Shown here: piece by piece, positions 3,199-63,600 of the stretch | Position numbering within the stretch: the stretch's first letter is position 1 | Layout of the letters: each line of letters begins with the position of its first letter | Source: Candidatus Uhrbacteria bacterium | Lineage (GTDB): Bacteria; Patescibacteriota; Patescibacteriia; UBA9934; GWF2-40-263 | Assembly (NCBI GenBank): GCA_026395055.1 | Contig: JAPLZK010000004.1 | Location: 273,891-337,890, forward strand | Direction: 5' to 3' | Length of the DNA stretch: 64,000 nucleotides | Made by a program: the position numbers and the translations under genes | The notes under the pieces: model-generated | Told to the model about the DNA's origin: nothing | The model's input: only the letters and a program-made list of their open reading frames with translations | Databases searched by the model: none

Positions 3199-3232
3199 CA
3201 CCCTTCGACAAGCTCGGGGTGGTTTTTTCTTT
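3199..3232 (+). terminator. Putative terminator hairpin (CCACCC...GGGGTGG plus T-run)
   Basis: Inverted repeat followed by TTTTTTCTTT after the PP2C gene stop. Confidence 0.45.
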
Positions 3233-4004: not shown

Positions 4005-4406
4005 ATGGAAATGGAAAATGTAGAAGTTCCAGCTAAGTTCAAGACACTCGTTGAGTCTATTGAAACAATGTCTGTTCTCGATCTTGCAGAACTCGTAAAA
4101 CTTTTGGAAAAGAAATTTGGCGTAAGTGCCGCTGCTCCCGCTATGATGATGGCAGCAGGTGGTGCAGCAGCAGGAGCTCCAGCTGCAGAAGAGAAAACAT
4201 CTTTCGATGTTGAACTCACCGCGTGTGGAGACAACAAGATCGGCGTGATCAAGGTTGTACGTGAAATCACAGGTCTCGGACTTAAAGAAGCAAAAGACGT
4301 TGTAGACGGAGCACCAAAGAACGTTAAGGAAGGTGTTTCAAAAGACCAAGCAGAAGAAATCAAAAAGAAATTGGTTGAAGCAGGTGGAACAGCCGTCATT
4401 AAGTAA
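4005..4406 (+). CDS. rplL: 50S ribosomal protein L7/L12
   Basis: Ala/Gly-rich hinge after the N-terminal dimerisation domain, and a C-terminal [23 protein letters not shown] motif. Confidence 0.9.
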
Positions 4407-29841: not shown

Positions 29842-29917
29842 GCCGTTGTAGCTCAGTTGGTAGAGCACATCCATGGTAAGGATGAGGTCATCGGTTCAAT
29901 CCCGATCAACGGCTCCA
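29842..29917 (+). tRNA. tRNA-Thr (anticodon GGT), CCA encoded
   Basis: Manual cloverleaf: acceptor GCCGTTG/CAACGGC, D-arm GCTC...GAGC, anticodon stem CATCC/GGATG with loop ATGGTAA, T-arm ATCGG TTCAATC CCGAT, discriminator U then CCA. Confidence 0.85.
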
Positions 29918-30014
29918 TTCGACTATCGTTAGTTTGCCATGAAGATAGTCGAATGTCCTGAGCTTGTCGAAGGGCCCAATGTACCCTGACAACCATCGCT
30001 CATGGTCTGCGACC
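29918..30014 (+). repeat. tRNA-trailing structured direct repeat, copy 1 (about 97 nt; hairpins CGACTATC...GATAGTCG, GCCC...GGGC, TGGTC-tgc-GACCA)
   Basis: About 90% identical to 30120..30218. Begins immediately after the tRNA CCA. Confidence 0.7.
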
Positions 30015-30033
30015 ACACAAGCAATTCACATAT

Positions 30034-30119
30034 GGGTAGATACTCAAGCGGTCAACGAGGGGAGACTGTAAATCTCCTGGCTCACGCCTTCGAAGGTTCG
30101 AATCCTTCTCTGCCCACCA
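30034..30119 (+). tRNA. tRNA-Tyr (anticodon GTA), long variable arm, CCA encoded
   Basis: Acceptor GGGTAGA/TCTGCCC (with one G-U pair), anticodon stem GGAGA/TCTCC with loop CTGTAAA, long variable arm, T-arm AAGG TTCGAAT CCTT; 86 nt. Confidence 0.8.
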
Positions 30120-30218
30120 TTCGACTATCGCTATCTTGCTATTTAGATAGTCGAATGCCCTGAGCCTGTCGAAGGGCCCAAAGCACTCTGACAACCACCG
30201 CTCATGGTCTTCGACCAG
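30120..30218 (+). repeat. tRNA-trailing structured direct repeat, copy 2
   Basis: Same start (TTCGACTATCG) and same hairpin series as copy 1. A third partial copy (30245..30276) forms the 5' coding end of the GIY-YIG gene. Confidence 0.7.
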
Positions 30219-30232
30219 TCATCTGAGAGAAT

Positions 30233-30532
30233 ATGTTTAACAATGTCGCAATCGAATGCCCTGAGCCTGTCGATGGACAATGTTGTGTATACATTCTTGA
30301 ATGTATTGATCACTCTTATTACGTTGGATTTACAACCAACATAAAAGAACGATTGATGAGACATGAAGGAAAAGATGCCTCACTCTGGACAACGGTCCGC
30401 GCGCCAGTCGCTCTCGTCTATGTAGAAGTACACACTTCATTCATTGAGGCACGTCGTCGAGAATCTCAGTTAAAGAAATGGACAAGAGTAAAAAAAGAAC
30501 GGCTTATTTCAGGAGAATGGCAAAAGCAGTAG
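30233..30532 (+). CDS. GIY-YIG nuclease superfamily protein (second copy), 99 aa, whose N-terminal 14 codons are encoded by a copy of the tRNA-trailing repeat
   Basis: CVYILECIDHSYYVGFTTNIKERLMRHEG...RRESQLKKW GIY-YIG motifs. Only one in-frame start codon is available (30233). Confidence 0.7.
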   Translation: MFNNVAIECPEPVDGQCCVYILECIDHSYYVGFTTNIKERLMRHEGKDASLWTTVRAPVALVYVEVHTSFIEARRRESQLKKWTRVKKERLISGEWQKQ

Positions 30533-30537
30533 TTTTT

Positions 30538-30613
30538 GCCGAAGTAGCTCAGTTGGTAGAGCAACGGTTTTGTAAACCGTAGGTCACGGGTTCGAGTCCC
30601 GTCTTCGGCTCCA
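30538..30613 (+). tRNA. tRNA-Thr (anticodon TGT), CCA encoded
   Basis: Acceptor GCCGAAG/CTTCGGC, anticodon stem ACGGT/ACCGT with loop TTTGTAA, T-arm ACGGG TTCGAGT CCCGT. Confidence 0.85.
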
Positions 30614-39285: not shown

Positions 39286-39435
39286 TGTGATTACACTCTC
39301 GATTTATCAACCACCAAAATCTGGACCCTAAACAGGGTTGATTTATTGCAGATAGGACAGGTCGCGACCTGTCCCTACAAAATATTTAAATCCTGTTTTC
39401 AAAACCGTTTGCTATCGCAAGCGGTTTTCTATTCT

Positions 39436-40506
39436 ATGCAACAATGGCAAATTGAATTACAAAATTGTGTGCGCACGGTAGATGAGCTCGAACAGTATCT
39501 TTCCATCGAAAATAAAGATCGTGTGCGTGAGGTGCTCGCGAACATGCGACTCTCGATTACGCCGCATACCTTAAATCTGATCGATTTCAAAAATCCAAAC
39601 GATCCGATTCTTCTCATGTGTGTTCCGTCTGATAAAGAATTGCGATTCTCACCCGAAGAACGTGTTGACCCGATCGGCGACGAAGCAAAATCACCGATTC
39701 CATTTCTCACACATCGCTATCCAGATCGTGTGCTCGTCTACGCAACATTTTTCTGTTCGCTCTTTTGTCGATTTTGTTTTCGTCGAACAAAGACAGGTGA
39801 GGCAACTCCGGGGCCGTCTGTCGAGGATCGCGATCGTATCGTTCAGTACCTCGAAAAACATCCGGAGGTCGACGAAGTTATTTTGACGGGCGGAGATCCG
39901 CTTACGCTTCTCGATGATCAACTCGAGGATTGGTTTTCTCGATTGCGATCCGTGCCGACTGTTTCTCGAATACGCGTTCATACACGCGTCCCTGTGAATC
40001 TTCCGTCGCGCATCACGAATTCGCTTATCGAGATGTTTCGAAGATACTCGGACGCAACACATCCAATCTACATCGTCACGCACTTTAATCACCCGCGGGA
40101 GATTGCGGCGGAGAATATTGAGGCGATTGCAAAACTTGTCGATGCCGGAATTGTTGTGCGCAATCAAGGTCCGTTGCTTCGCGGAGTGAATGATGATCCT
40201 GTGATTCTCGAGATGCTGTTCAAGAAGCTCGCGAACATTCGCGTCGTTCCGTATTACTTACATCAACTCGATCTCGCGAAGGGGACAAATCATTTTCGTG
40301 TGCCAATCGAGCGTGGAATCGAGATCATGCGCGAACTGCAAGGTCAAGTGACGGGAATTGCGTTGCCGCGATACGTTGTCGATCTACCAGGCGGAAAAGG
40401 GAAGGTTCCGCTTATGCATCGATATACACAAAAACAAACGGACTCGAATTATACGATCGAGAGTCCGTTTGGAGAATGTGTTGAATATCATGAGCCGAAT
40501 GATTGA
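39436..40506 (+). CDS. KamA-family radical SAM enzyme (lysine 2,3-aminomutase / EpmB-like)
   Basis: CSLFCRFCFRR (CxxxCxxC) cluster, LTGGDPL, and C-terminal Zn-site residues. Start at MQQWQIEL. Confidence 0.75.
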   Translation: MQQWQIELQNCVRTVDELEQYLSIENKDRVREVLANMRLSITPHTLNLIDFKNPNDPILLMCVPSDKELRFSPEERVDPIGDEAKSPIPFLTHRYPDRVLVYATFFCSLFCRFCFRRTKTGEATPGPSVEDRDRIVQYLEKHPEVDEVILTGGDPLTLLDDQLEDWFSRLRSVPTVSRIRVHTRVPVNLPSRITNSLIEMFRRYSDATHPIYIVTHFNHPREIAAENIEAIAKLVDAGIVVRNQGPLLRGVNDDPVILEMLFKKLANIRVVPYYLHQLDLAKGTNHFRVPIERGIEIMRELQGQVTGIALPRYVVDLPGGKGKVPLMHRYTQKQTDSNYTIESPFGECVEYHEPND

Positions 40507-40519
40507 CAATTCGGCTATT

Positions 40520-40604
40520 TCTGTTACCCTTCGTCCAGTTCTTTACGAGTGTTCACTTCGACAAGCTCAGTATCTACGGCGCTTAGCGCCTTTGAGGGGG
40601 AATC
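40520..40604 (+). promoter_or_regulatory. Promoter (TTGACA-16-TACCCT) plus conserved 60-nt leader with GGCGC-tta-GCGCC hairpin and GAGGGGGAA SD, copy 1
   Basis: Nearly identical to 41581..41687 (about 93% over the leader), although the downstream CDSs are only distantly similar. Confidence 0.55.
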
Positions 40605-41522
40605 ATGTTGCCAGCATTGCGTCGTGTGTCTGATCGGCTTTCTACGGAGATGAATGCTTGGCTCGGGGTTCGCGAGAATCTTGGTTTCAAAGTCATCTCC
40701 TACATGAAACCAGAAACGCTTGAAGTGCATTTTGGAACAGACGCGAGTGTGACACAGGTTGCACCGCGGGGAATTTCAGAAAAGATTCTTGAAGCGATTC
40801 AGAAGCATCGAAACATTTCGACAATCTTTGTCAGAGATCCAAAGGTTTCGGAGCATGTTGCGTACGTGATCACGATCGATCTGGATCGTGGGCGCGTGGA
40901 TCGCGAACGATCTTCGTGGCAGTTGCTCGAGGATCGATGGGGATGGCGACGTGGTTTGCCGCAAAAGGAAGATGTGCCGACGTACGAAGGTCGGGATTAT
41001 CACGTAAGCCTTTTCGATTTTCTGCACGCGTTTGCCATGCTTGCCGTGGATCCGTTGCAGCAACAGTATCGCCGCGCGTTCCTTACGCGACAAGCAAGGA
41101 TCACGAAAGGATTCGGTCATAGTCAACGATTCGAATCGCTCATCTCGTGTCTTGCCTCGCAACTGGATCCGGAAACGTGTGTCTTGTTCATGCGTGCCAT
41201 GCACGAGCTTTGGAAGCATGAAGAGCACATGAATCGTTCTGTGAGTTTTGAGGAAGCACAAGAGGTTCTCTCTTCTGCGCGAATTGAAGCGCAAGAATAC
41301 GATCACAACAATCAGTTTTGGGAGATGCATGACTTTGGCCCTGAGGTAGCGGGCCGATCTTGGTTCAATGATATGGGGGATCGTATTGCCTCTGCGACTG
41401 TTTACGGAGACGGAGCGAATCCCGCATCCGGAAAAACGGAAATACGCGTTTGGGTGTACCGTTCGTTGTTCGTTCAAGAACAGGCACGTGTACTCATGAA
41501 GTGTTTTGCGTCGAAGAAGTAA
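40605..41522 (+). CDS. Hypothetical protein, tandem paralog 1 (305 aa)
   Basis: Shares the N-terminal ML..LRR.SDR..SE..AWLG motif and a central SQLDPETC.LF.RA motif with the next gene. No known family recognised. Confidence 0.55.
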   Translation: MLPALRRVSDRLSTEMNAWLGVRENLGFKVISYMKPETLEVHFGTDASVTQVAPRGISEKILEAIQKHRNISTIFVRDPKVSEHVAYVITIDLDRGRVDRERSSWQLLEDRWGWRRGLPQKEDVPTYEGRDYHVSLFDFLHAFAMLAVDPLQQQYRRAFLTRQARITKGFGHSQRFESLISCLASQLDPETCVLFMRAMHELWKHEEHMNRSVSFEEAQEVLSSARIEAQEYDHNNQFWEMHDFGPEVAGRSWFNDMGDRIASATVYGDGANPASGKTEIRVWVYRSLFVQEQARVLMKCFASKK

Positions 41523-41580
41523 AATCTTGCCATCTTATGCGAACGCACTGGATGGTTTTTTGTTTACAAGCCTTCTCGCG

Positions 41581-41687
41581 AATATTGACAGGACAGGTAT
41601 TTCTGATACGCTGCGCGCAGTTCTTTTGCGAGTGCTCACTTCGACAGGCTCAGTATCTACGGCGCTTAGCGCCTTCGAGGAGGAATC
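41581..41687 (+). promoter_or_regulatory. Promoter plus conserved leader, copy 2
   Basis: TTGACAGGACAGGTATTTCTGATACGCT...GAGTGCTCACTTCGACAGGCTCAGTATCTACGGCGCTTAGCGCCTTCGAGGAGGAATC ATG. Confidence 0.55.
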
Positions 41688-42653
41688 ATGTTGTCATCAT
41701 TGCGTCGTATTTCTGATCGATTTGTGTCCGAGGCCTCGGCCTGGCTCGGCGCGCATGAGAGGCTCACGTTTGAAGTGGTGCGTTGTGTGAAGGGGGATGA
41801 TCTCGAAAGGTATTTTGCCAATTTTCCAGATCCGCACGTCATGCTTCGTCGCGTTTTGCCAAACGGCATCTCTCAGCAATTGATCAGGGCGGGACAGAAG
41901 GGTCGAAAGATTCTCTGTATGTTCATGATTGATTTGAAAGGTGCGATTGGTGATGAATACGTGATCACGATCGACATGGACCGCCGGCGTGTTGATCGCA
42001 AATTGTCCTCGCCTGAGTTGCTCTTGGATCCGTGGTTCAAACCGCGTGATGAGCCATGGTTTGGCGAGCTGGTCTATTCTGCGGATGTACGCCACTCGGA
42101 ACTGATAGATCTGCTCGACATACCTTTTGTGGGTCTTGGTGGTCGGCCGTTTCGTAGCCACTACGAACATCGGTTTTTCAAACGACAAAATCAGATCAGT
42201 GAATCATTTGGCTACAGTCGTCGGTTCGCTTCGCTCTTTTCGCGCCTGGCACCGCAACTGGATCCAGAAACGTGTTTACTTTTTCGCCGCGCCCTTGGAA
42301 ATCTTTGGACACACGAACAATGGATGCGTCGCAAGGTTGATCTCGTGGACGCGGAACGTGCGTTGTCCGAAGCACACCTCGATGTGACGTTTGTTTGTCT
42401 GAAAGATCATGGTTACTTTCAGGACGAAATGCTTACGCAAGTGTGTATCTGGACGGATGCCGATGAAAACGTGATTGCACAAGCGGAAGTCAGCTGCAAC
42501 GATTACGGTGTTGATCGAAAGCCGTACGCCTCCGTATATGTCTTTGGAAGTTCATTTGGTCGCGAGGACGGAATTCGTTTACTAAATTGTTTCAAGGACA
42601 AAACGGAAACCAATCTGCGCAATGAAACAAATCCTGTGTTGAAGTGGAAATAA
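41688..42653 (+). CDS. Hypothetical protein, tandem paralog 2 (321 aa)
   Basis: As above; a similar CCATC...GGATGG-TTTTTTGTTT terminator follows both genes. Confidence 0.55.
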   Translation: MLSSLRRISDRFVSEASAWLGAHERLTFEVVRCVKGDDLERYFANFPDPHVMLRRVLPNGISQQLIRAGQKGRKILCMFMIDLKGAIGDEYVITIDMDRRRVDRKLSSPELLLDPWFKPRDEPWFGELVYSADVRHSELIDLLDIPFVGLGGRPFRSHYEHRFFKRQNQISESFGYSRRFASLFSRLAPQLDPETCLLFRRALGNLWTHEQWMRRKVDLVDAERALSEAHLDVTFVCLKDHGYFQDEMLTQVCIWTDADENVIAQAEVSCNDYGVDRKPYASVYVFGSSFGREDGIRLLNCFKDKTETNLRNETNPVLKWK

Positions 42654-42656
42654 AAA

Positions 42657-42700
42657 GCTCGCCATCCTGAATTGAAGGATGGTTTTTTGTTTCTTACAAA
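42657..42700 (+). terminator. Terminator (CGCCATCCT gaattga AGGATGG TTTTTTG), followed by a minus-strand terminator hairpin (CCGCACAGC...GCTGCGCGG) for the convergent gene
   Basis: Hairpin plus T-run, seen directly in the sequence. Confidence 0.6.
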
Positions 42701-42746
42701 ATAAAATACCGCGCAGCAAAGTTGCTGTGCGGCAAGAGAATGGGAA

Positions 42747-43367
42747 TCACTTGACGATCGGTTCGCCGGGGTGAGTCCAGTCGAAGAAGACAGCTTCGGT
42801 CGCAGGAATACTGCGCGGGGAGTGACGCCAGCCCATCGGGACGTTTTCGCCTGGGTAGATGGTTTGCACTTTCACGAGCCACTTGTCTTTGCCTTCCGGA
42901 TCCGAGAACCCGAGAGCAAAGGTGATTTGCTTCGTCGGCTTCGCGAGAACGGCTTTGTCCGTGACCTTGTAGGCCTCGGTGTAGTCGTTCGGCGCGAAGA
43001 ACGCTACTTCCGTGCCTTCGGGCAGTTCCGAAATCGGACACGTCGAGCTCCAGCCGATGAGGTGGGTGTGATCGATTGTGATGCGATGATTCGGATTCTG
43101 TTTGCCTTCGGCCTTGAGTTCCGTGATCATTTCGAGGATCTCGCCGAAGAGCTGTTCGCGAACGAGCGTGTCCGCGAGCAAATTTTTGAGTGACTCCCAC
43201 AAGTGGAAGTTGCCGGAAAGGGGCTTGCCGCGTCCACGGAAGCATGTCGTATTCAGACGTCCTTCCTGCTTTTGCGGCAGGACGATCGTGAACGGCATGA
43301 GCGGAATGCTGGCTTTGAGGATAGGTTTCGCTTTGGTGACGTCATCGAGGGAAATGCGCAAGTCCAT
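42747..43367 (-). CDS. Hypothetical protein (206 aa), divergently arranged with rtcB
   Basis: Start at ATG 43367 with an AAGAGG SD. About 57% GC. No family recognised. Confidence 0.5.
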   Translation of the reverse strand: MDLRISLDDVTKAKPILKASIPLMPFTIVLPQKQEGRLNTTCFRGRGKPLSGNFHLWESLKNLLADTLVREQLFGEILEMITELKAEGKQNPNHRITIDHTHLIGWSSTCPISELPEGTEVAFFAPNDYTEAYKVTDKAVLAKPTKQITFALGFSDPEGKDKWLVKVQTIYPGENVPMGWRHSPRSIPATEAVFFDWTHPGEPIVK

Positions 43368-43462
43368 GCTGCCTCTTTTTGGTGTCCGTAAGGACGTTGT
43401 AGGGAATCGGAACGAACCAGTTTCATACTTTGAAACGCCGAAGAATATCACAAAATGACGAT

Positions 43463-51654: not shown

Positions 51655-54600
51655 ATGAATCGTTCTTGGCTCAATTTTTATCTTCGATGTTCTGGTTTTG
51701 TTTTTAACTTGAAACAAAAAGTCGTCCAGTCAGAAAATTGGATCGTAATTTTACCGTCAGCGATTTTATTGATTGGATCTGAATGTGTTTTATCTCTAAC
51801 GTCATTGCCGCTTTTTTTGTTGGTTTCTCCAGACTCGGTGCAAGAGTCTGGTCTTTTTTTTCCAAAAAAATTGAAAGATAAAAGCGCGTACCAATCATTT
51901 ATGGTGCGACGCAAGATTAGTTTGTTTACGGCAGGTGGAGCGGGCGGAATTTATATCTTGAAGCTATTGATTGTTGGAATTGTCTCCGCCTATTTGTTGG
52001 GAGCAACACCACTTCTTGCCGCTATTCAAAACTGGGATCTCTCAACCGCAGGAAATTATACCTATGATTCTGCAAAGGTGGAGGTGACGGGGGGAGTTGC
52101 ACGGCTAAAAGATTTAGGAAGTTCTGCAAGTGGATCGACTGCAAATAGCAATTTTACTTCGAACTCGACGGGGTGGACGTATGTTCCAAACTGGATTCAT
52201 GGGGGAGGTGGATCAAATTCGGGAAATTATCATGCGGCGAGCGGAAATCCTGGTGGGTATATTGATCTTGATGAGGATGCGCAAAAAAGCAAAACAGAAG
52301 CGTCTTATTGGTATCAGTCATTTGCGACAACAGTAAACTCTCCAGACACAGCAACGATTAGTTTGGATTGGGCGAGCCTAACTGTTGGAACCCTTGCTTC
52401 AACGTATAAGATTTATGTTTTTATTGATACGACAAGTGGAAATCCAACCGTGGGTCAAGAAGTTTGGTCGAGTCCAGAAATTACAAGCACAACACCTTGG
52501 GCAAGTGTGGCACCAATCAGTATTACCGCAAAAGTTCCAACAGCTGGAATGTATTATCTGAAGATCGCTTCAAGAATTTCGCGTACAGCAAGCGGATCGC
52601 TTCGTGAGCATAACGTGACAGGTTGGGACAACGTGATTGTGAACTGGTCAAAGACCACACACAGTTATGATACAAGTTCGCCAACGATCACTCCAACAAC
52701 ATCCCTTACATTGACCGGGACAAAAAGTTGGAATCATTTCACGGAAACATCCACGTTGAATGGCGGATCCATCAATTATCAACTCTCGAGTGATGATGGT
52801 GTGACATGGCAGTATTGGAATGGATCGGCGTGGGCGACGGCAGGCGGTTCGAATGACAATGCCGCGACGGTTGTTGATGCACATATTGCAACGTTTACAA
52901 AAGCCACCAACAAAATAAAATGGAAAGCGTTTCTCACAAGCAGTGGAACACAGCAAGTGATTCTTGATAACGTTGCCGTTGATTACACCGACAACGCATT
53001 GCCGGTCATTTCGAGTGTTTCGCCTGCACAGAGTATAAGTACGGGGCGTGTAGTAATTCCGTACACGTTGACCGATGCGGATAGTGACCCTGCAACATTG
53101 TCGACGTATGAGTATTCACTTACAGGTGCATTCACAGGGGAACAAGTTACGATGACAGCGGCAACAGGGGATCCGTCACATAGCGGAATCTCAGGTCTTA
53201 CGTCATCGCCTGGCGGAACCGCACACACATTTGTTTGGGATGCATTTTCTCAACTCGGTGCGGTATACAACACAACGGTGTATGTCCGATTACGTGCGAA
53301 TGATGGCGTAGGAAATAGTTCTTATGCGGCATCAAGTGTATTCACAGTTGATTATGTGAATCCGGTTGTGTCGAGCGTAACAGCTGCGCAAACGCTTGGA
53401 TCCACAAACGTATCCATTACATATACATTGGCCGACAATACATCGGATAATCTTTTGGTTGAGGTGCAGGCTTCGAGTGATAATGGCGTGACGTGGACCG
53501 TTCCTATTACATCCGTCACGGGTGCTGTTGGTGCAGGACAGTCGACGGGCACAGGAAAAACCATCACGTGGAATGCGGGAACGGATTACACATCGCACGA
53601 ATTAAGCACGATGAAAATTCAGGTGCGTGCAAAAGATAAATACCAAAATCAGGGTTCCTACGTTGCAAGTTCTGCGTTCGCTCTTGATACGCGTGCTGCG
53701 GCTGTGTCAGCGCAGGTGAATCTTCAAGCACAACCAAACGCGGGAGACACTACAGCTCTTCTTGGGGGATCATTCACAGAGATCAATCCAAACACAAATG
53801 ATTTCTACGTTGCTATTGATGGTGGTGCGTACGGAACATCGACTGCGGGAACGGTGAATACCGCATCGCCCGCAAACCAAGCGACGGCTGTTGGTTCAAC
53901 ACTTAGTGGACATGATTACATTTCAAACGTAAAAATTATTCACACAGACGATTTTGGAAACGTGACGTCAAATGAAAATACGTTGCCATCCACTTTGTTT
54001 AAATATGTAAAACCGTACACGCCACTCGCGCCAACACTCTCAAGTCCTCTCACAACGCAATTGAATGTTGTTGTAAATCCAAATGCAAGTGAAGCGTCGG
54101 ATGTTGAGTATGCGATTAATGAAACGAGTACGGGAAAATTCGTCCAAGCAAATGGAACGCTCGGAGCAAGTGCTGTTTGGCAAACAACCGCCGTTTGGGG
54201 AACAAAAATTGTCACGGGACTTTCGTCACCCGTTGCGAATTACATTTTCAAAGTAAAATCACGAAATCCAAACGACGCAGGACATGCAGCTTCTTCTGAG
54301 TCTGCGTATTCGCCAACCGCTCAGATCTCGAACACAGCTCCATCGATTACGCTTGGTTCTATTTCACAAACAACGGATGGAACAAAATATGTCACCATTA
54401 ATTACACGGGAACGGATGTACAAGGAGATATAAACAGTTTGACGGTGTACGAATATTCTCGTGATAACGCAACATGGCACACCATGACAGAAAAGTCTGG
54501 TGTTGGCTCGGAAGGAACTTCGAATCTAACATTTCTTTCTGGAGGAAGTTCCCATAATTTTAAATGGGATATAGGAACAGATCTCGCGGGTGTTGAGGAT

Positions 54601-57600
54601 GCGACGGTGTATGTTCGATTGCGTTCCTCGGATACGCTCGCAACAAGCACATTCACGACTTCATCTGCATTCGAGATCGACACGACTCTTCCTGTTGTCT
54701 CGAGTGTTTCCGCTTCACAAAATTCCGGTGCGCGAATGGTGACGGTTACCTATACATTAACCGATGCGAATAATTCGCTCGTCGATATTGGTATATCAAA
54801 TGACGGCGGATCGACTTGGGCTGTTGCAACAACCACAGCGAGTGGTCACATTGGATCTGGTGTCACACCAGGATCAAAAACAATCACTTGGAATGCAGGA
54901 ACGGATTTTAATACGCAATACAACACAAGCATGCAAGTGCGCGTGCGCGCACGAGATACATTTGGCAATCAAGGAGTTTACGCCTCAACGAGCAGCTTTA
55001 CCGTCGACACACATGCTCCGTCTGTTGCAAACGTAACAGCGGTTCAAGATTCTGGCGCGGACACATTCACATTTCATTACGATGTAAGTGAAGATGCGGG
55101 AAACGTCATGGTTGGTCTTGAAGTCTCGAATGATGGTGGTTCAACATGGGCCACGCCCGTTACGAGTGCGGCGGGAGATATAGGAAGTGGCATCTCGAGC
55201 GGAACAGGAAAAACAATTACCTGGAATGCGGGAACAGATTATAATGGTCACGAAAAAACAACCATGAAGATTCGTGTGACCGCAACAGATGCGTATTCGA
55301 ACACCTCAAATACAAGCTCATCGAACTTCGATCTTGACTCACTTGCTCCACGCGTGACAAGTGTTGCGGCTGTACAAATACTGGGTACAACGAATGTTTC
55401 CATTACGTATACGCTCGCAGATCAAAATAGCTCCCTTGTCGAGATGGATATTTCGAATGACGCAGGTTCAACGTGGACCGTAACGAATACATCGGTCACG
55501 GGAGATATCGGAAGTAGTATTTCGAGTGGAAGTAAAACAATCACCTGGAACGCGGGAGCGGATTACGATGAGCATGCGCAAGCAAACATGCGTGTTCGCG
55601 TGCGTGCGAAAGATATCTTCAATCATCAAAGCGCAAACACGCAATCTGTCAATTACGCACTCGATACGTTGAATCCAGCAACAAATGTAATAGTGGATTT
55701 GCAAGCACAACCAAACGCGGGTGCAACAACTGTTTCCGTCGGCGGATCATTTACAGAAACAAATCCAAACACAAATGATTTTTATGTGGCGATCGACGGA
55801 GGAGATTATGGATCTGTATCTGCAGGAGATACGAATACGGCGTCCCCCTCCAATCATGCAACCTCTGTTGGGGGAACGCTCGACGGAAATGATTACATCT
55901 CAAAGGTGAAGATGGTACACGCGGATGATTATGGACAATCCGTAACAAACGAAAACACTTCGCCTTCTTTTCAATATGTAAAGCCATACACACCTGCAAC
56001 ACCAACCGTTTCTAATCCAACACACGGAACCGTTGATGTCACGGTCACAAAAAATGCGCTTGAAACAGATGGCCTTGAGTACGCAATTTTCGAGACGACA
56101 CAAAATACATATGTCCAAGCAGATGGATCTCTCGACGCAGGTGCGGTTTGGCGCACAACCACGGCATGGGGAACGGAAACGGTACATGGACTTACAAATG
56201 CTTCTTACACCTATCAATTCAAAGTAAAATCACGCAATACCTCTGACGGATTACACGCAGCCTCAAGCGAAAGTGCGCTTTCTGGTGGCGCGTCTTCCGC
56301 AAATCAATCGCCTTCCATTGCGTTGAATACGGTTGCCGAGACCATGGATGCAACAAAGTATGTCACGATCGCCTATACCGGTTCAGATCTCGAGAGTGAA
56401 TCTTCAGCTATTATCACGGCTCAATACTCTCGAGACAACGCGGCGTGGCACACGATGACAGAAAAGTCTGGAGTTGGATCAGATGGAACAACCGGACTCG
56501 CGTTTGCGTATATGGGAACGTCGCATCATTTCATGTGGGACGTTGGAACGGACCTTGCAAATACAGAGGACACAACAACGTATATTCGTCTGCAAGCAAA
56601 TGATGGAACATCAAGTGGATCTGTCGTGACATCGGATGCATTCACGATTGATACAAAGAATCCTGTTGTCTCGAGTGTGGCAGCTGTACAACAAGGCGGA
56701 TCAAACAATGTTATTTTCACCTACACATTAACCGATGCATCTTCAAGTTCGGTTGCACTTGATGTTTCAGATGATGCAGGACTCACGTGGGTGGTTGCAC
56801 AGACAACAACCACAGGGGATGTTGGAGCAAATATTTCCGCAGGCTCGGGAAAATCTATTACTTGGAATCCCGGTGTTGATTTCAGCGGACAAGAACAATC
56901 GGATTTGCGTGTGCGCATTCGGGCAACAGATGATTTTGGAAACGCGGGAGCAAATGCGTCATCTGCAAACTTTACGATCGACACAGAATCACCTCGTATT
57001 TCAAACGTAACAGCCTCACAAGATAGTGGATTAAATACTGTTACGATCCATTACGATATTGCGGATGCAAACACATCGGATGTTGCGATGGATATTTCGG
57101 AAGATAATGGATTAACATGGGGAGTTGCAAAGACGACACTTGCTGGCGCGATCGGCAGCGGCATCTCGACTGGCACAAACAAAACGGTTACATGGAATGC
57201 GGCCACGGATTTTCCAAATCGTGAACAATCCGGAATGATGATTCGTGTTCATGCAACAGATACACATAACAACTTGAGCGGAGACGTTTCTTCCTCTTCA
57301 TTTGGTGTCGACACGCTCGCGCCCGTTATCTCGAACGTTGTTGCTTCACAAACACTCGGATCAAACAATGTAGTCTTCACCTACGATCTATCGGATAGTG
57401 GATCGGTGAACGTTGCACTCGACATCTCGAGTAACAGCGGTTCAACATGGGTTGTGATAGATACATCTGTTACAGGAGCTGTTGGGGCAGGGCAGACAAC
57501 AGGTACATCAAAAACAATCACATGGAACGCAGGAACAGATGCATCAAACACAGATCTTTCCACCATGCGGGTTCGTGTTCGCGGAACAGACGGATTCAAT

Positions 57601-60600
57601 AATGCAAGTTCGAATGTTGAATCATCAGACTTTTTGCTCGATACAAAATCTCCTGTTGTGTTAACCGTGGCAGATTTGGTTTCACAGCCCGTTGCGGGAA
57701 GTTCTGCCGCAACCGTGATCGGATCATTTACAGAAACAAACCCAAACACAAATGATTTCTATGTTGCGATTGATGGCGGAGCCTATAGTCCTGTTTCTGG
57801 TGGAGATGTAAATACGGCATCACCTTCAGGTCACGTCACGCCAATAGGTGCAACGCTTGATGGAAATGATTACATCTCAAAAGTTAAGATTGTTCACACG
57901 GATGATTATGGTCATAGTGTGACAAGTGAGAATACAACGCCTTCCATATCATTTAAATACGTAAAGCCGTACACGCCACAAGCTCCAGGCGTCACGAATC
58001 CACACAACACGACTGTTGATCTCGTTTCCGTGCCAAATGCCGCAGAAACTTCCGGACTTGAGTACGCGATTTACGAAACATCTACATCCAAGTTCGTTCA
58101 AGCAGATGGATCTCTGAGTACGGGTGCTGTATGGCGTACATCCGTTGCATGGGGAACAACAACGGTAACAGGACTTTCCTCGCCCGTTGCGCACTATCAC
58201 TTTGAAGAAAAATCTCGTAACACATCTGATGCGGCACACGCCGTGTCGAGTGAAAGTGATCTGTCTGCCTCAGGATCAATCACAAACTCCGCACCGGTTG
58301 TTTCTATCACGAGTGCTTCACAACAAACTGCATCCAACTACGCATTGATTCAGTACACAGGAACAGATGCGCAGAATGATACAAACAGTCTGACAACATT
58401 TGAGTATTCCACAGACAATTCTGCGTGGCATACCATGACAGAAAAAGCAGGAGTGGGTTCTGATGGAACATCTGGTCTCATCTTTGCTTCTGCGGGAACG
58501 GCTTATACATTTGCTTGGGATATTGCGACAGATCTTCCAAACACAGGAGATCCAACGGTATACGTTCGATTGCAATCAAGTGACACGCTTGCAAGTAGTA
58601 ACATGGAAGCATCTTCTGCGTTTGCCATCGATACGCTCGGTCCGGTTATTTCAAACATTCTTACGAGCCAAATACCAGGAACAAATCTTCTCACGTTTAC
58701 GTACGATTTGGCTGACAGCACTGCGGCAAACAACACCGTTTCGTTGCTGATCTCCTCGGACAGCGGACTGACATGGTCTGTTCCAACAACAACCCTTGTG
58801 GGTGATGTTGGTTCCTCAGTCTCTGCAGGACTTTCTCGAACCGTCACATGGAATGCGGGAACAGATTTCAACAATCAGGAACATTCAACCATGCGTATTC
58901 AGATTCAGGGAACAGATGTGTATGGAAATGCAGGGTCTGCGGTAAGTTCATCAAATTTTACCGTGGATACAAAGGGAGCAGTTGTTTCTGGCGTGACCGC
59001 TGCGCAAGTTGATGGATCAAATACTATCCAAGTGGATTACACATTGAGCGATCTTTCTTCTGGTGGACTTCTTGTAGAGTTCAGTGCGTCGTCGGATAAC
59101 GGATCAACATGGACCGTTCCGGTAAACACGTACACAGGTGAAATGGGAGCCGGACAAACAACAGGAACAAAACAATTTATCTGGAACGCGGGAGTAGATT
59201 TTGCGAACGAAGCACATGCAAACATGAAGGTGCGCGTTCGTGCACTCGACTATTACGGCGATCAAGGTGGATTCACTTCTTCCTCCGCATTTGCTCTTGA
59301 TACAAAAGCTTCCGTTGTCTCGAATGTAACCGCTTCACAAAACAGTGGAGCGCGAACGGTCGCGATCTCGTACGATCTTGCGGATGACACATCTTCCAAT
59401 CTCACAACCGAATTACAAATTTCAGAAGACAACGGAATCAGTTGGACAGTCATTCAGAGTTCTGTAACCGGTGCTGTTGGATCTGGAATCTCAACCGGTT
59501 CTGGAAAAACTATCACATGGGACGCGGGAACAGATTTCAATGGTCAGTTCCAATCAGATATGAAGGTCAGAGTACGTGCGATGGATCGATTCATAAATCA
59601 AGGTGATTATGCCGCATCATCTGCATTCACGGTTGATACAGCGAATCCAGTTGTTTCGAACGTCACAGCTTCGCAAAATACAGGATCAGATCTCGTGACG
59701 ATGCACTATGATCTTGCAGATGGAAGCTCAACGAATCTTACGATAGCTCTTGAGATTTCCTCTGACGGCGGATCAACATGGATCGTCCCAACAACTTCGG
59801 CAACAGGTCATGTTGGATCTGGAATCTCGACCGGTACAGCAAAGACCATCACATGGAATGCGGGAACAGATTTCAATAATCAAGAAATTTCCAATCTGCG
59901 TGTTCAGGTGAAAGCAACTGATCGATTTACAAATGCAGGAAGCTTTGTAAGCTCATCAAATGTAGCGATCGATACAAAAGCTCCGATTACTCTCGCAACC
60001 ACAGATTTGAGTGCGCAACCAAATGCGGGTGATACATTCGTCCTTGTCAGTGGAAGTTTCACAGAATCGCATCCAGACACAAATGACGTCTCGGTTGCGA
60101 TTGATGGAGGAGCATATTACTTACCGTCTGGACTAGACGGAACAGCAAGCGTGACAAACCAAGGTGTTGGAACGGGCGCAACTCTTCGCGGAAACGATTA
60201 CATCTCCAAAGCAAAAATTGTTCACACAGATGTGTTTAATCATGGTGGAACAAATGAGAACACAGCGCTCTCTGCTGCGTTTAAATACGTGAAGCCATAT
60301 ACACCACAACCGTTAACTGTCGAGAATGCGACCGCAAACTCGGTTGATGTAACCGTGAATAAGAATCCGGCGGAAGTTTCCGGACTCGAGTATGCGATCT
60401 TTGAATCGACGACCTCGAAGTACGTCCAAGCAGATGGATCTCTTAATACGAGTGCCGTGTGGCAAACAGGAGCGGTCTGGTCAACGAAAACGGTGAGTGG
60501 ACTTAGTTCTCCGGTTTCAAATTACCTATTTAAGGCAAAATCACGTAATTCTGCGGATGCAGGTCATGCCATCTCGAGTGAAAGCGCTCTTTCATCTGGC

Positions 60601-63600
60601 GCATCTATTGCAGCAACAGCGCCAAGCATTGTGCTGAATTCGTACGGACAAAGTGCCGGAAATGATTACGTTCTCATCAACTACACAGGAATTGATGCGC
60701 AAAATGATATATCGCATCTTGCCACAATGGAGTTTTCTCCAAACAACACAAACTGGTTTCCGATGACAGAAAAAGCGGGAGTGGGAAGTAGTGGAACAAC
60801 CGGACTTGCATTTACTTCATCCGGAGCCGCCTTCGTCTTCGCTTGGGACGCAGCAACAGATCTTTCGCAAGTTGAAGGAGATGTGTATGTCCGACTTGTC
60901 GCAAATGACGGAGCACAAGATGGAGACATTGCCACAAGTTCATCGTTCCCCCTCGATTTGAAAGCTCCGGTCGTCTCGAATGTAAGCGCTTCTCAAAGTG
61001 GACACAACGTGACGGTCACGTATGACGTAGCAGACGTCACTTCAAGTATCGCGGTTGATTTAGAAGTATCTTCTGATAACGGATCAACGTGGACGGTATC
61101 GACTCCATCGGCAACAGGAGCTGTTGGAAGCGGTCAGACAACAGGGGTTGGAAAAACAATTGTCTGGAATGCGGATGTAGATTTTGATGGACAGTTCCAA
61201 TCTGATATGAAGATTCGTGTGCGTGCAACGGACAGCTTCCATCATGAAGGTTCGTTTGCAGAGTCATCTGCATTCACGCTCGACACTGCAAATCCAGTTG
61301 TCTCGAACGTCACGGCTTCACAGCTCCCTTCAAGCGACACTGTGTCCGTCACGTATGATCTTTCCGATGATACGGGAACAGGATTGAATGTCGTGTTCGA
61401 AGTATCGAGTGATAATGGATTAACCTGGACCGTTCCAACAACTTCCGCAACGGGCGCATTTGGATCCGGACAAACAGCGGAGGTTGCAAAAACCATTTCC
61501 TGGAATGCGGGAGCCGATTTCAATCATCACTATTCAACAGGAATGATGGTTCGCGTGCGTGCGACCGATTCGTTCGCGAATGAAGGATTGTACGGAGCAT
61601 CTTCTGCGTTCACCGTCGACACAAACACACCAAGTGTTTCAACTGTCACAGCTGTTCAAAATGCTGGTTCTACAAACGTAAACATTGCGTACGATGCATC
61701 AGATGACACTTCGAATGGACTTACAGTTGCTCTCGAAGTATCGGATGATAATGGATCAACTTGGACGGTGGGAACAACATCTGCAAGTGGATCGGTTGGA
61801 AACGGACAGTCTGTGGGGACAGGAAAAGCCATTGCATGGAACGCAAAACTCGACTTTACAGATCAGTTTAAGTCAGACATGAAGGCGCGTGTACGTGTGA
61901 CGGATGCGTATGGACATGTTCAAACATCGAGCGCATCTTCTGCATTCGGTCTTGATACAACAGATCCGGTCATCTCAAATCTCTCTGTTGCACAAACAGC
62001 AGGATCGAATAATGTAACAATCGGATATGATCTTTCCGATGATACGGCAACAAATCTAGCAATTGCCTTGCAAATCTCAAGTGATGGTGGTTCTACCTGG
62101 ACGGTCACTACAACTTCCGCGACAGGATCTGTCGGAAGTGGGTTCTCGAGTGGTGCAGGAAAAATCATTACATGGGATGCGGGAACAGATTTCGCAAATC
62201 AAGAAGTCTCAAATATGCGTGCACGACTTGTTGGAACGGATGCGTTCTCAAATACAAGTGTGAACACAGATTCAACAAATGTGCTTGTTGATACAAAAGA
62301 CCCTGTTGGTCTTTCAAGTCTGACAAACTTCCTCAACACAAGCACAGCAATTACACTTCACTGGAATTCCGCGAGTGATTTAACTTTTGATCATTACGAA
62401 CTCTGGTTTGGTGAAAATGAGATAGACGTGACGAATCGAACGGGTGCGGCACACAGCTGGGCCGTTTCAGATGATGCAATACTTGCAAACGCACTCACGT
62501 CGTCAACAACGATCGCAGGACTCACGATTACTTCGGATGTCTTTGTCAGAATCTTTGCGGTTGATGCGTATGGACATGTGGTGACAACAGGTGATGTACG
62601 CGTTTCACCTCCAGCCCCACCGGTTCCAATAACGATCGCGGGTGGAGGTGGTGGTAACGGTGGATGTTCTGGAGTTGGATGTGCGCCCGTCCTTCCAACA
62701 CTTCCAGACACGATTCCGCCGACAACTCCAATCGTTTCTACACTTCCATCAACAATGAACGATAAGGCCGTTCTTATAAGCGGACTCGCAGAACAGAGTT
62801 CCATAATTGATCTGTATGATCACGGAACATTGATTCGTCGATTGGCGAATAAAACAACGGCAGACGGGGTGTTTGCAGAAACAATCACGTTTGATGAGGG
62901 AGCGCACGTTCTAACGGTGAAAGCAACAGATGCAGTAGGGAATACGAGTGGATTCTCGGATGCTGTGGCATTTACCGTTGACTTAATGCCTCCTGTGAGT
63001 GTAACGACGCCTGTTATAACAACACCCACAGAAACAGTGGTCGTTTCTCCGCCCGTATCCATTCCGCCACCTGTTCTTGGGCCAACGCTCCTTCCGGCGA
63101 TAACGCCTTCCGCCGCAGCGATTCAGCAGGTTGTGGGTGCGGTCGAGCTTCCAGGACTTCAAGCGCCTGAAATTACGAACGCCGTTGCAACAACAGCCGT
63201 CGCCGTGCCTGCCGCCGGAGTTGCAAATGCTGTTACAGGAACAACGTTCCGATTCAGCGGAACAACCATTCCAAATGCACGCGTAGCCGTTTATCTTCAC
63301 AGTACACAAGCGCTTGTGTATCAAACAACGTCAGACGTAAAAGGTGTGTGGACTCTGGATCATTCACAACAACGTGCTGAGCTTGCAGAAGGGGATCACT
63401 CCATTTACGCCGTAACCATTGATCCAAACGCAAACGTAAAGAGTCACGCAAGTCCAATTCGTATGTTTACCGTGAAAAAGGATTGGCTTGCAGATTTATT
63501 CCAATATCTCAATTTACACACAACGCTTATTACGTTAGGAATATTAATGGTATCCGTTCTTTGGCTCTTTCGCTTAAAGAAAAAAGGGGTAGAACAGGTT

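Follow-up and report, generated by a model that had tools for sequence, protein, structure and literature searches.

Several described systems show recombination keeping parts of paralogous genes alike. In Helicobacter pylori, intragenomic gene conversion among babA, babB and babC gives chimeric genes, and a 5' swap transfers expression control between paralogs (PMC4552749). In mammals, BEX, WEX and GASP are evolutionary chimeras in which untranslated regions (UTRs) and coding sequences have different histories (PMC1274310), and the concerted evolution of prokaryotic rRNA operons and tuf genes leaves paralogs within a genome closer to each other, through recombination, than orthologs between genomes (PMC6053082, PMC8022953). 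Here we describe two tandem genes, W1 and W2, in a 64-kb stretch of DNA (the window) taken from a metagenome-assembled genome (MAG) of Candidatus Uhrbacteria (Patescibacteria, or candidate phyla radiation, CPR). Their common leader and first codons are probably a short gene-conversion tract in a recombining, mosaic paralog family, a reading to which we give a probability of about 0.68. On this reading the locus adds a further case to an evolutionary process already known, and no new regulatory element is involved.

Like the bab genes, W1 and W2 belong to a set of divergent paralogs that are homologous at the 5' and 3' ends and type-specific between them. The Bab proteins, however, are outer-membrane adhesins with host-driven variation and CT-repeat phase variation, whereas here there is no secretion or membrane signal and no phase-variable repeat, the ratio of nonsynonymous to synonymous divergence (dN/dS) is 0.11-0.26, and the tract is mostly untranslated leader. 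In the BEX, WEX and GASP genes, as here, a 5' UTR motif is kept alike by repeated gene conversion while the coding regions are highly divergent (PMC1274310), but that system consists of eukaryotic UTR exons and more than 20 genes in three families, as against two bacterial tandem genes and one tract of about 90 nt. The rRNA operons and tuf share with this locus the closeness of paralogs within a genome; there, whole highly conserved genes are homogenised, and here only the leader and first codons are, the rest being saturated.

W1 and W2 are open reading frames (ORFs) on the + strand, lying directly 3' of a KamA-family radical SAM gene, which is where the preliminary description of this DNA had placed them and where ORFs and domain matches confirm them to be. 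Each has its own promoter and intrinsic terminator, a 5' UTR of about 68 nt and a strong Shine-Dalgarno sequence, so that the two are predicted to be separate transcription units. The W2 protein is identical to the NCBI hypothetical protein NTX72_06220, encoded on a 339-kb contig (Candidatus Uhrbacteria MAG). Related DNA, obtained through the KamA neighbour and by exact-protein look-ups, comprises eight Uhrbacteria loci (L001-L004, L061-L063 and L065); compared with these, only the window has two family copies side by side, and a family search of its 64 kb found no member beyond W1 and W2. The features compared are as follows.

40605..41522, + strand: W1 coding sequence, 305 aa; modules A + 1; uncharacterised family; AlphaFold2 model, pLDDT (predicted local distance difference test) 87
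41688..42653, + strand: W2 coding sequence, 321 aa; modules B + 2a
40536..40625, + strand: putatively homogenised tract, copy 1; 5' UTR from the predicted start (~40537) and W1 codons 1-7
41619..41708, + strand: putatively homogenised tract, copy 2; 5' UTR and W2 codons 1-7
40857..40940, + strand: W1 central block, aa 85-112, YVITIDxDRxRVDRxxSS; junction of N- and C-modules
41951..42035, + strand: W2 central block; recombination junction

The two proteins are 38% identical over 313 columns (BLASTP), slightly above the 30-35% that had been judged by eye. Past the first 12 codons their synonymous sites are saturated (proportion of synonymous differences, pS, 0.76-0.80; synonymous divergence, dS, above 2), as against a dS of 0.18 in codons 1-12. 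A direct repeat of 95 nt (40542-40636 and 41625-41719) is 91% identical, and sliding-window identity between the two genes peaks at 90-97% over 40544-40603, compared with about 40-55% in the gene body. The best-scoring similar segment, 40536-40636, has 92 of 102 columns identical and scores 62; the maximum among 20,000 column permutations was 25, and none (0/20,000) reached the observed score. This segment begins at about the predicted transcription start (~40537). With the 3' boundary set by a three-way comparison of W2, W1 and L065, the tract runs through codon 7 and covers about 90 nt (40536-40625 and 41619-41708) that are approximately 91% identical, with seven substitutions and one indel, and it is longer and more alike than overall divergence predicts. 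The claim that the upstream stretch is far more conserved than the coding sequence is thus borne out by the sliding window, the permutations and the dS contrast, but over a narrower extent than first stated: the leader and first codons are included and the promoter is not. A simple recent duplication, in which proteins would be about as alike as leaders, is contradicted by proteins at 38% and dS above 2 next to leaders at about 91%.

Comparison with orthologs showed where the likeness ends. The leaders of the family fall into two unalignable types, alpha and beta, with lengths from about 30 to 68 nt. Alpha leaders begin with AGTTCTTT and contain ACTTCGnnAAGCTCnGTATCTA; W1 and W2 have long ones, L001 and L002 have ones of medium length, and L004 has a short one. 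The beta type, found in L003, L061-L063 and L065, measures about 30 nt and has the hairpin GTTCCR-NNT-TGGAAC at its start. By gene body, W2 falls with L065 (78-92% aa identity by segment) and W1 with L001. The closest relative of W2, L065 (protein P0003; 85% aa identity, dS 0.64), nevertheless has a beta leader, matching that of L003 at 19/23 nt and that of W2 at 9/23, and its protein starts MF.TV, whereas W2 starts ML.SL, like W1. Over coding nucleotides 1-21, W2 matches W1 at 19/21 positions and L065 at 16/21; over nucleotides 22-72 it matches W1 at 30/51 and L065 at 42/51, so that W2 turns from W1-like to L065-like at about codon 7-8. The paralogs are therefore alike in the tract and the orthologs alike in its flank. 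In addition, inserts of 16 nt and about 9 nt are present in the W1 and W2 leaders and missing from the alpha leaders of L001, L002 and L004, which makes them derived indels limited to the copies of one genome. The two window copies thus share a derived leader not seen in their orthologs, the signature of intragenomic homogenisation.

The gene bodies are themselves mosaic. Module types were defined from segment-wise identities, with the N-module at aa 22-84 and the C-module from aa 113 to the end.

N-module type A: W1, L001, L002, L003
N-module type B: W2, L065, L061-L063, L004
C-module type 1: W1, L001
C-module type 2a: W2, L065, L003
C-module type 2b: L002, L004, L061-L063

All four combinations of A or B with 2a or 2b occur (B + 2a in W2 and L065, A + 2a in L003, A + 2b in L002, and B + 2b in L061-L063 and L004), and recombination is therefore required; such chimeric genes are a mark of variable mosaic families. 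The modules join at the conserved central block. L001 (A + 1) and L002 (A + 2b) share their upstream gene and differ little in leader and N-module (dS 0.27), but their C-modules are wholly different, and the L002 gene may have come from unequal crossing-over between two tandem copies.

W1 and W2 are old paralogs whose bodies diverged long ago, and we suggest that about 90 nt of one copy, from the predicted start through codon 7, would recently have been overwritten by the other. The likely mechanism is gene conversion over a short tract, acting between direct repeats that lie 1,083 bp from each other, a form of concerted evolution. Recombination at conserved blocks is a regular feature of this family and has reassorted leader types, N-modules and C-modules among genomes. 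As an outcome both paralogs would use the same transcription and translation start signals, and co-expression would be expected. Gene conversion restricted to the flanks, together with diversifying selection, had been among the preliminary suggestions; the mosaic, the discordant leader of the W2 ortholog and the shared inserts favour its recombination part, while the part on selection is not borne out (see below).

Several points weigh against the conversion reading. The L065 leader was compared over 23 nt only. The tract is about 8% diverged, so either the conversion was not very recent or selection contributes. A dispersed repeat motif makes up the core of the leader, and part of the likeness could be a shared functional site. 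Both leader types put a short stem with a 3-nt loop so that it ends exactly 14 nt before the start codon, a shared spacing that hints at a possible constraint on leader architecture, for example mRNA stability or ribosome loading. Finally, two copies in one genome do not formally separate conversion from very strong selection. The locus is a clear case of non-coding DNA better conserved than coding DNA without a new riboregulator, and scans that flag such contrasts should first ask if the element is also present in orthologs. A second point of interest is the record of concerted evolution over a short tract, and of shuffled modules, in Candidatus Uhrbacteria, a reduced-genome CPR lineage in which recombination between paralogs has been little described.

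An alternative, which we consider unlikely, is that the whole promoter-to-terminator cassette was recently duplicated in tandem and one coding body was then swapped for a divergent allele by homologous recombination, with the conserved 5' end and a downstream block as anchors, leaving flanks that are identical by descent. It draws on the likeness of W1 and W2 at either end, in the 5' leader as well as in the stem and tail of the terminator, on a W1 terminator nearer to the type-2 family terminators than to that of the A + 1 ortholog L001, on the documented swapping of modules in the family, and on the presence of the cassette after differing upstream genes with homology from TTGACA exactly. 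The outer signals of the two units are listed here.

40503..40530, + strand: predicted W1 promoter; TTGACA at 40503-40508, N16 spacer with TG at 40522-40523, TACCCT at 40525-40530
41585..41612, + strand: predicted W2 promoter; TTGACA at 41585-41590, N16 spacer with TG, TACGCT at 41607-41612
41529..41565, + strand: W1 terminator; GCCATC ... GATGG, then TTTTTTGTTT; -16.5 kcal/mol, z -2.4
42661..42693, both strands: W2 terminator; GCCATCC ... GGATGG, then TTTTTTGTTTC; -20 kcal/mol, z -5.0

Both predicted promoters have the form TTGACA-N16-TAC[CG]CT with TG one base before the -10 hexamer, that is, an extended -10 sigma-70-type promoter, and the position of the W1-type promoter after KamA is kept in L061-L063. 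From the -35 hexamer to 6 nt past the -10 they are identical at 24/34 positions, but without the generic TTGACA, TG and TA..CT positions at only 12/22, which is not above the likeness of either W1 or W2 to L004; the W1 promoter resembles those of L062 and L003, and the W2 promoter that of L004. The promoters had been described as near-identical, a likeness that comes down to a genome-wide TTGACA/TGnTAnnCT consensus, the same TTGACA/extended -10 design being shared in the window by the RtcB and NUDIX genes and by a gene for a 233-aa protein downstream of W2. The terminators had been called near-identical too. Both are real, as their folding z-scores show, and the W2 terminator, flagged on both strands, is common to W2 and the convergent 233-aa gene; their likeness, however, is confined to the CCATC/GATGG stem and T-run, which almost every family locus outside this genome has in its terminator too, and it is not above that between W2 and the terminators of those other genomes. 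The promoter cores are thus alike through a generic consensus and the terminators through family-wide ancestry. Cassette duplication would, moreover, still need recombination at the same 5' boundary, and differs from the conversion reading mainly in the order of events.

Some observations on the promoter region stand apart from this comparison. The W1 -35 hexamer lies in the loop of an inverted repeat, AGCCGAAT/ATTCGGCT, at 40493-40516, and the TGA stop codon of KamA (40504-40506) falls within the -35 TTGACA. In L001 (~15-30) and L002 (~520-540) the TGA stop of a PGA_cap gene likewise falls within the -35 TTGACA. Homology between loci starts exactly at TTGACA, as though the promoter-to-terminator unit moved as a cassette.

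The preliminary description had also proposed a functional cis-regulatory RNA or DNA element. On this view the leader would be an RNA switch, attenuator, thermometer or operator that purifying selection has held near-identical since duplication, which we regard as rather improbable. Its most visible part is a hairpin that had been reported just 5' of the Shine-Dalgarno sequence in both genes and was found there.

40578..40590, + strand: GGCGC-TTA-GCGCC hairpin, copy 1, ending 14 nt before the ATG
41661..41673, + strand: GGCGC-TTA-GCGCC hairpin, copy 2

A regulatory element would account for non-coding sequence far better conserved than coding sequence, for the recurrence of the blocks AGTTCTTT and ACTTCGnnAAGCTCnGTATCTA in L001 and L002, and for the presence, in alpha and beta leaders alike, of a stem-loop that ends 14 nt ahead of the start codon. 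The 5' AGUUCUUU can also pair with the Shine-Dalgarno region in 5/5 alpha leaders; this is the single consensus pairing among them, and it is weak. A cis-regulatory RNA would be expected upstream of orthologous genes, however, and the closest ortholog of W2, at dS 0.64, has an unrelated leader of the other type. GGCGC-TTA-GCGCC occurs at those two window sites only, within the 16-nt insert, so that both it and the 9-nt block are window-specific insertions, and GGCGCTTAGCGCC was found in none of 67 fetched loci. Leader length ranges more than twofold across the family (about 30 to 68 nt), and the synonymous sites of codons 1-7 are homogenised together with the UTR. Folding and covariation, which had been put forward as tests, gave nothing better than chance: the two leaders are no more stable than shuffled sequences (z +1.07 and +0.91), and the alifold consensus of the five alpha leaders has an energy of -1.4 kcal/mol with compensatory changes in 0/7 predicted pairs. 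No Rfam family matched at gathering thresholds anywhere in the window, and over 40400-42800 there were only chance-level matches (E of at least 0.68), none of them in the leaders. Further leader copies had likewise been proposed as a test; a pattern search and an unfiltered sequence model found no third copy in the 64 kb. Scanning the JGI metagenomes with a promoter-plus-leader pattern gave one match, which was judged to be chance: the contig is AT-rich and unrelated, and the match lies upstream of a small membrane protein that is unrelated as well.

Two specific forms of leader control were tried and rejected. As a transcription attenuator the leader hairpin is followed by only 2-3 U, and as a structure sequestering the Shine-Dalgarno sequence the pairing is weak and shows no covariation. 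The beta hairpin lies at the predicted mRNA 5' end (in L003, for example, at 4334-4348; in L061, L062 and L063 just upstream of the family gene); its loop varies among CGT, TGT and TTT, and one pair has changed from A-U to G-U.

The core of the window leaders is a 15-mer, CTTCGACARGCTCAG, that is a dispersed intergenic repeat in Uhrbacteria. The window contains 7 matches to it at no more than two mismatches, compared with 0.25 expected.

40556..40570, + strand: 15-mer arm, A variant, CTTCGACAAGCTCAG, in the W1 leader
41639..41653, + strand: 15-mer arm, G variant, CTTCGACAGGCTCAG, in the W2 leader
3203-3217, + strand: 15-mer in a terminator loop
29958-29972, 30160-30174 and 30261-30275, - strand: 15-mer at three tRNA spacer sites
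Inverted 15-mer pairs in related loci: L003 2413-2456, L004 6812-6856, L005 1600-1650, L059 1038-1081, L062 ~1515-1561

In these five loci the inverted pairs form a palindromic element of about 50 nt between a candidate attenuator (described below) and the start of KamA, and the pair is missing upstream of KamA in L061 and in the window, a presence/absence polymorphism. With multiple intergenic copies, inverted-pair hairpins and this polymorphism, the 15-mer resembles repetitive extragenic palindromic (REP) sequences or miniature inverted-repeat transposable elements (MITEs). The REP sequences and bacterial interspersed mosaic elements (BIMEs) of enterobacteria and the Correia elements of Neisseria are short intergenic palindromic repeats. 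The 15-mer is like them in being intergenic, in its inverted-pair hairpin, in its presence/absence polymorphism and in its occurrence in 5' UTRs and terminator loops; it is unlike them in having no sequence relation to them and only about 6-7 copies in 64 kb, plus five related loci.

This repeat is part of a wider view in which the pair would be a modular locus of the CPR in its intact form, with two recombining cassettes whose leader, N-modules and C-modules would be shuffled at conserved junctions for functional variants, and the leader would be a common RNA-RNA or protein-mediated control point kept by selection through conversion. As its base the leader would then have an arm of the dispersed repeat, with exact complementarity to tRNA-spacer sequences, and we hold this view to be very improbable. 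That a trans interaction keeps the leaders alike, the core CUUCGACARGCUCAG pairing with complementary RNA from the tRNA-Thr and tRNA-Tyr spacers or binding a repeat-recognising factor, is scarcely credible: the spacers do hold exact 15-nt reverse complements, with the A variant at 29958-29972 as in W1 and the G variant at 30160-30174 as in W2, and the motif is in excess in the window and intergenic in other Uhrbacteria, but complementarity between copies of a small palindromic repeat dispersed in both orientations is automatic, A/G variants are common among the copies, the complementarity stops at 15 nt, and it accounts for 15 nt of a 90-nt tract.

The tRNA cluster itself (29842-30613) encodes tRNA-Thr (GGT), tRNA-Tyr (GTA) and tRNA-Thr (TGT). 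Each of the first two tRNAs is followed by a 101-nt repeat (29915-30015 and 30117-30217, 87% identical) that holds a 10-bp hairpin as well as the 15-mer. Judged by eye only, a small ORF at about 30282-30530 is GIY-YIG-like.

The gene bodies are under purifying selection, with dN/dS of 0.11-0.26 in the orthologous module comparisons W2-L065, L061-L063, L061-L062 and W1-L001. The diversifying selection that had been proposed by analogy with toxin/immunity or surface-variation families does not agree with these values, nor was any defence, phage, toxin or surface domain found. W1, W2, their neighbours and 39 family members had no family-level match in Pfam, NCBIfam, PADLOC or PHROGs, and a profile search against PDB sequences gave no match. 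There was no transmembrane-like segment in W1 or W2 (maximum 19-residue hydropathy 1.2-1.3) and, by eye, no signal-peptide-like N-terminus. The AlphaFold2 model of W1 (m7b9d715deef1; pLDDT 87, predicted TM-score 0.81) has an alpha/beta domain at the N-terminus and a beta-rich one at the C-terminus, with a helical part between them. Foldseek comparison of this model with PDB and BFVD found nothing with an E value below 0.29; several of the sub-threshold matches were GNAT-fold acetyltransferases, which may serve as a lead. An unannotated family with a confident model that lacks a structural match, and with a KamA-type aminomutase as its steady neighbour, may merit structural or functional follow-up.

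The family is rare. Among 5.8 billion protein clusters there were 2 matches for W1 and 8 for W2, and a full hidden Markov model search of 1.84 billion representatives gave 71 matches, 9 of them close and full-length; pattern-based scans of genome and metagenome contigs with the family alignment found no locus. Remote members share the C-terminal ~135 residues; they also carry a central segment that is strongly hydrophobic, and their short contigs offered no informative gene context. In the remote relatives P0013-P0040 this segment has the consensus LFSLPxxLxLxPxLL, and it has been lost in the Uhrbacteria clade.

Related loci mostly run NUDIX, KamA, a single family gene (at times accompanied by the 233-aa gene on the opposite strand) and RecQ on the - strand. 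The family gene is missing at this position in L005 and L006, the family cassette sits 3' of a PGA_cap gene in L001 and L002, and ribonucleotide reductase genes take the place of RecQ downstream in L063. The 233-aa protein of the window (42747-43451, - strand), convergent with W2 and downstream of it, has no family match. It is also encoded in L003 (3578-4192) and L004 (8013-8579), where the gene is divergent and upstream of the family gene, and is missing in L061-L063; three genomes thus have the gene, on differing sides of the family gene.

Upstream of the pair, the KamA-like gene is preceded by a conserved short ORF.

39437..40506, + strand: KamA-family radical SAM aminomutase gene; the ATG at 39437 matches orthologs, and the mechanical ORF start is a TTG at 39346
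39287-39331, + strand: upstream ORF of 14 codons, (M)ITLSIYQPPKSGP and stop; leader region to 39436
Orthologous upstream-ORF regions: L003 2287-2410, L004 6682-6812, L061 3702-3816, L062 1390-1512, L063 341-455, L006 7783-7900, L007 7892-7936

The KamA-like protein scores 297 bits with TIGR00238, above the cutoff, and its orthologs in Uhrbacteria MAGs are 70-89% identical. Identification as EpmB was considered but not supported: the protein falls under the EpmB and AblA equivalog cutoffs, as does a Leptospira relative, whose neighbours were uninformative. Eight other Uhrbacteria loci keep the 14-codon ORF, and the differences among them are mostly synonymous, the ortholog peptides being MVTQSIYQPPKNGP, MVTRSIYQPPKTGP, MITLSIYQPPKQAP and MVTRSVFHPPKSSP, each followed by the stop; L008 has a differing short ORF in that place, MIECPVPP, which ends PP-stop. 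The stop of the 14-codon ORF (PPK...P-stop) overlaps the 5' arm of a terminator hairpin, AACARGG...CYYTGTT-T7, in which compensatory changes are present, and a second hairpin follows 3' of it, before the KamA ATG. Rfam had no match in the upstream-ORF region. Diprolyl and Pro-stop motifs depend on elongation factor P (EF-P), and EpmB, an enzyme of EF-P modification, is a member of the KamA family (PMC12856214). Judged from its sequence, the ORF with its terminator may be a ribosome-stalling (PPK/Pro-stop, EF-P-sensitive) attenuator. The literature checked, a review and one study, makes no mention of such a leader for epmB or kamA genes. This candidate is testable and is probably a more valuable lead than the gene-conversion tract.

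Two of the database records used here are titled 'uncultured Gammaproteobacteria bacterium': L004 (CAYOCD010000003.1) and L006 (CAYHDY010000011.1). Both carry an Uhrbacteria-type KamA adjoining RecQ, and L004 also NUDIX; protein identity to the window is 80-93% for KamA, NUDIX and the L004 RecQ, and 63% for the L006 RecQ. The taxonomic labels of these two records look wrong. Further downstream in the window, a giant gene on the + strand (~52700-63000) contains nested tandem repeats of about 330 nt and about 1,970 nt, in at least 12 copies with 60-87% identity, and probably encodes a repetitive surface protein; its syntenic counterpart in L061 was called as 3,586 aa.

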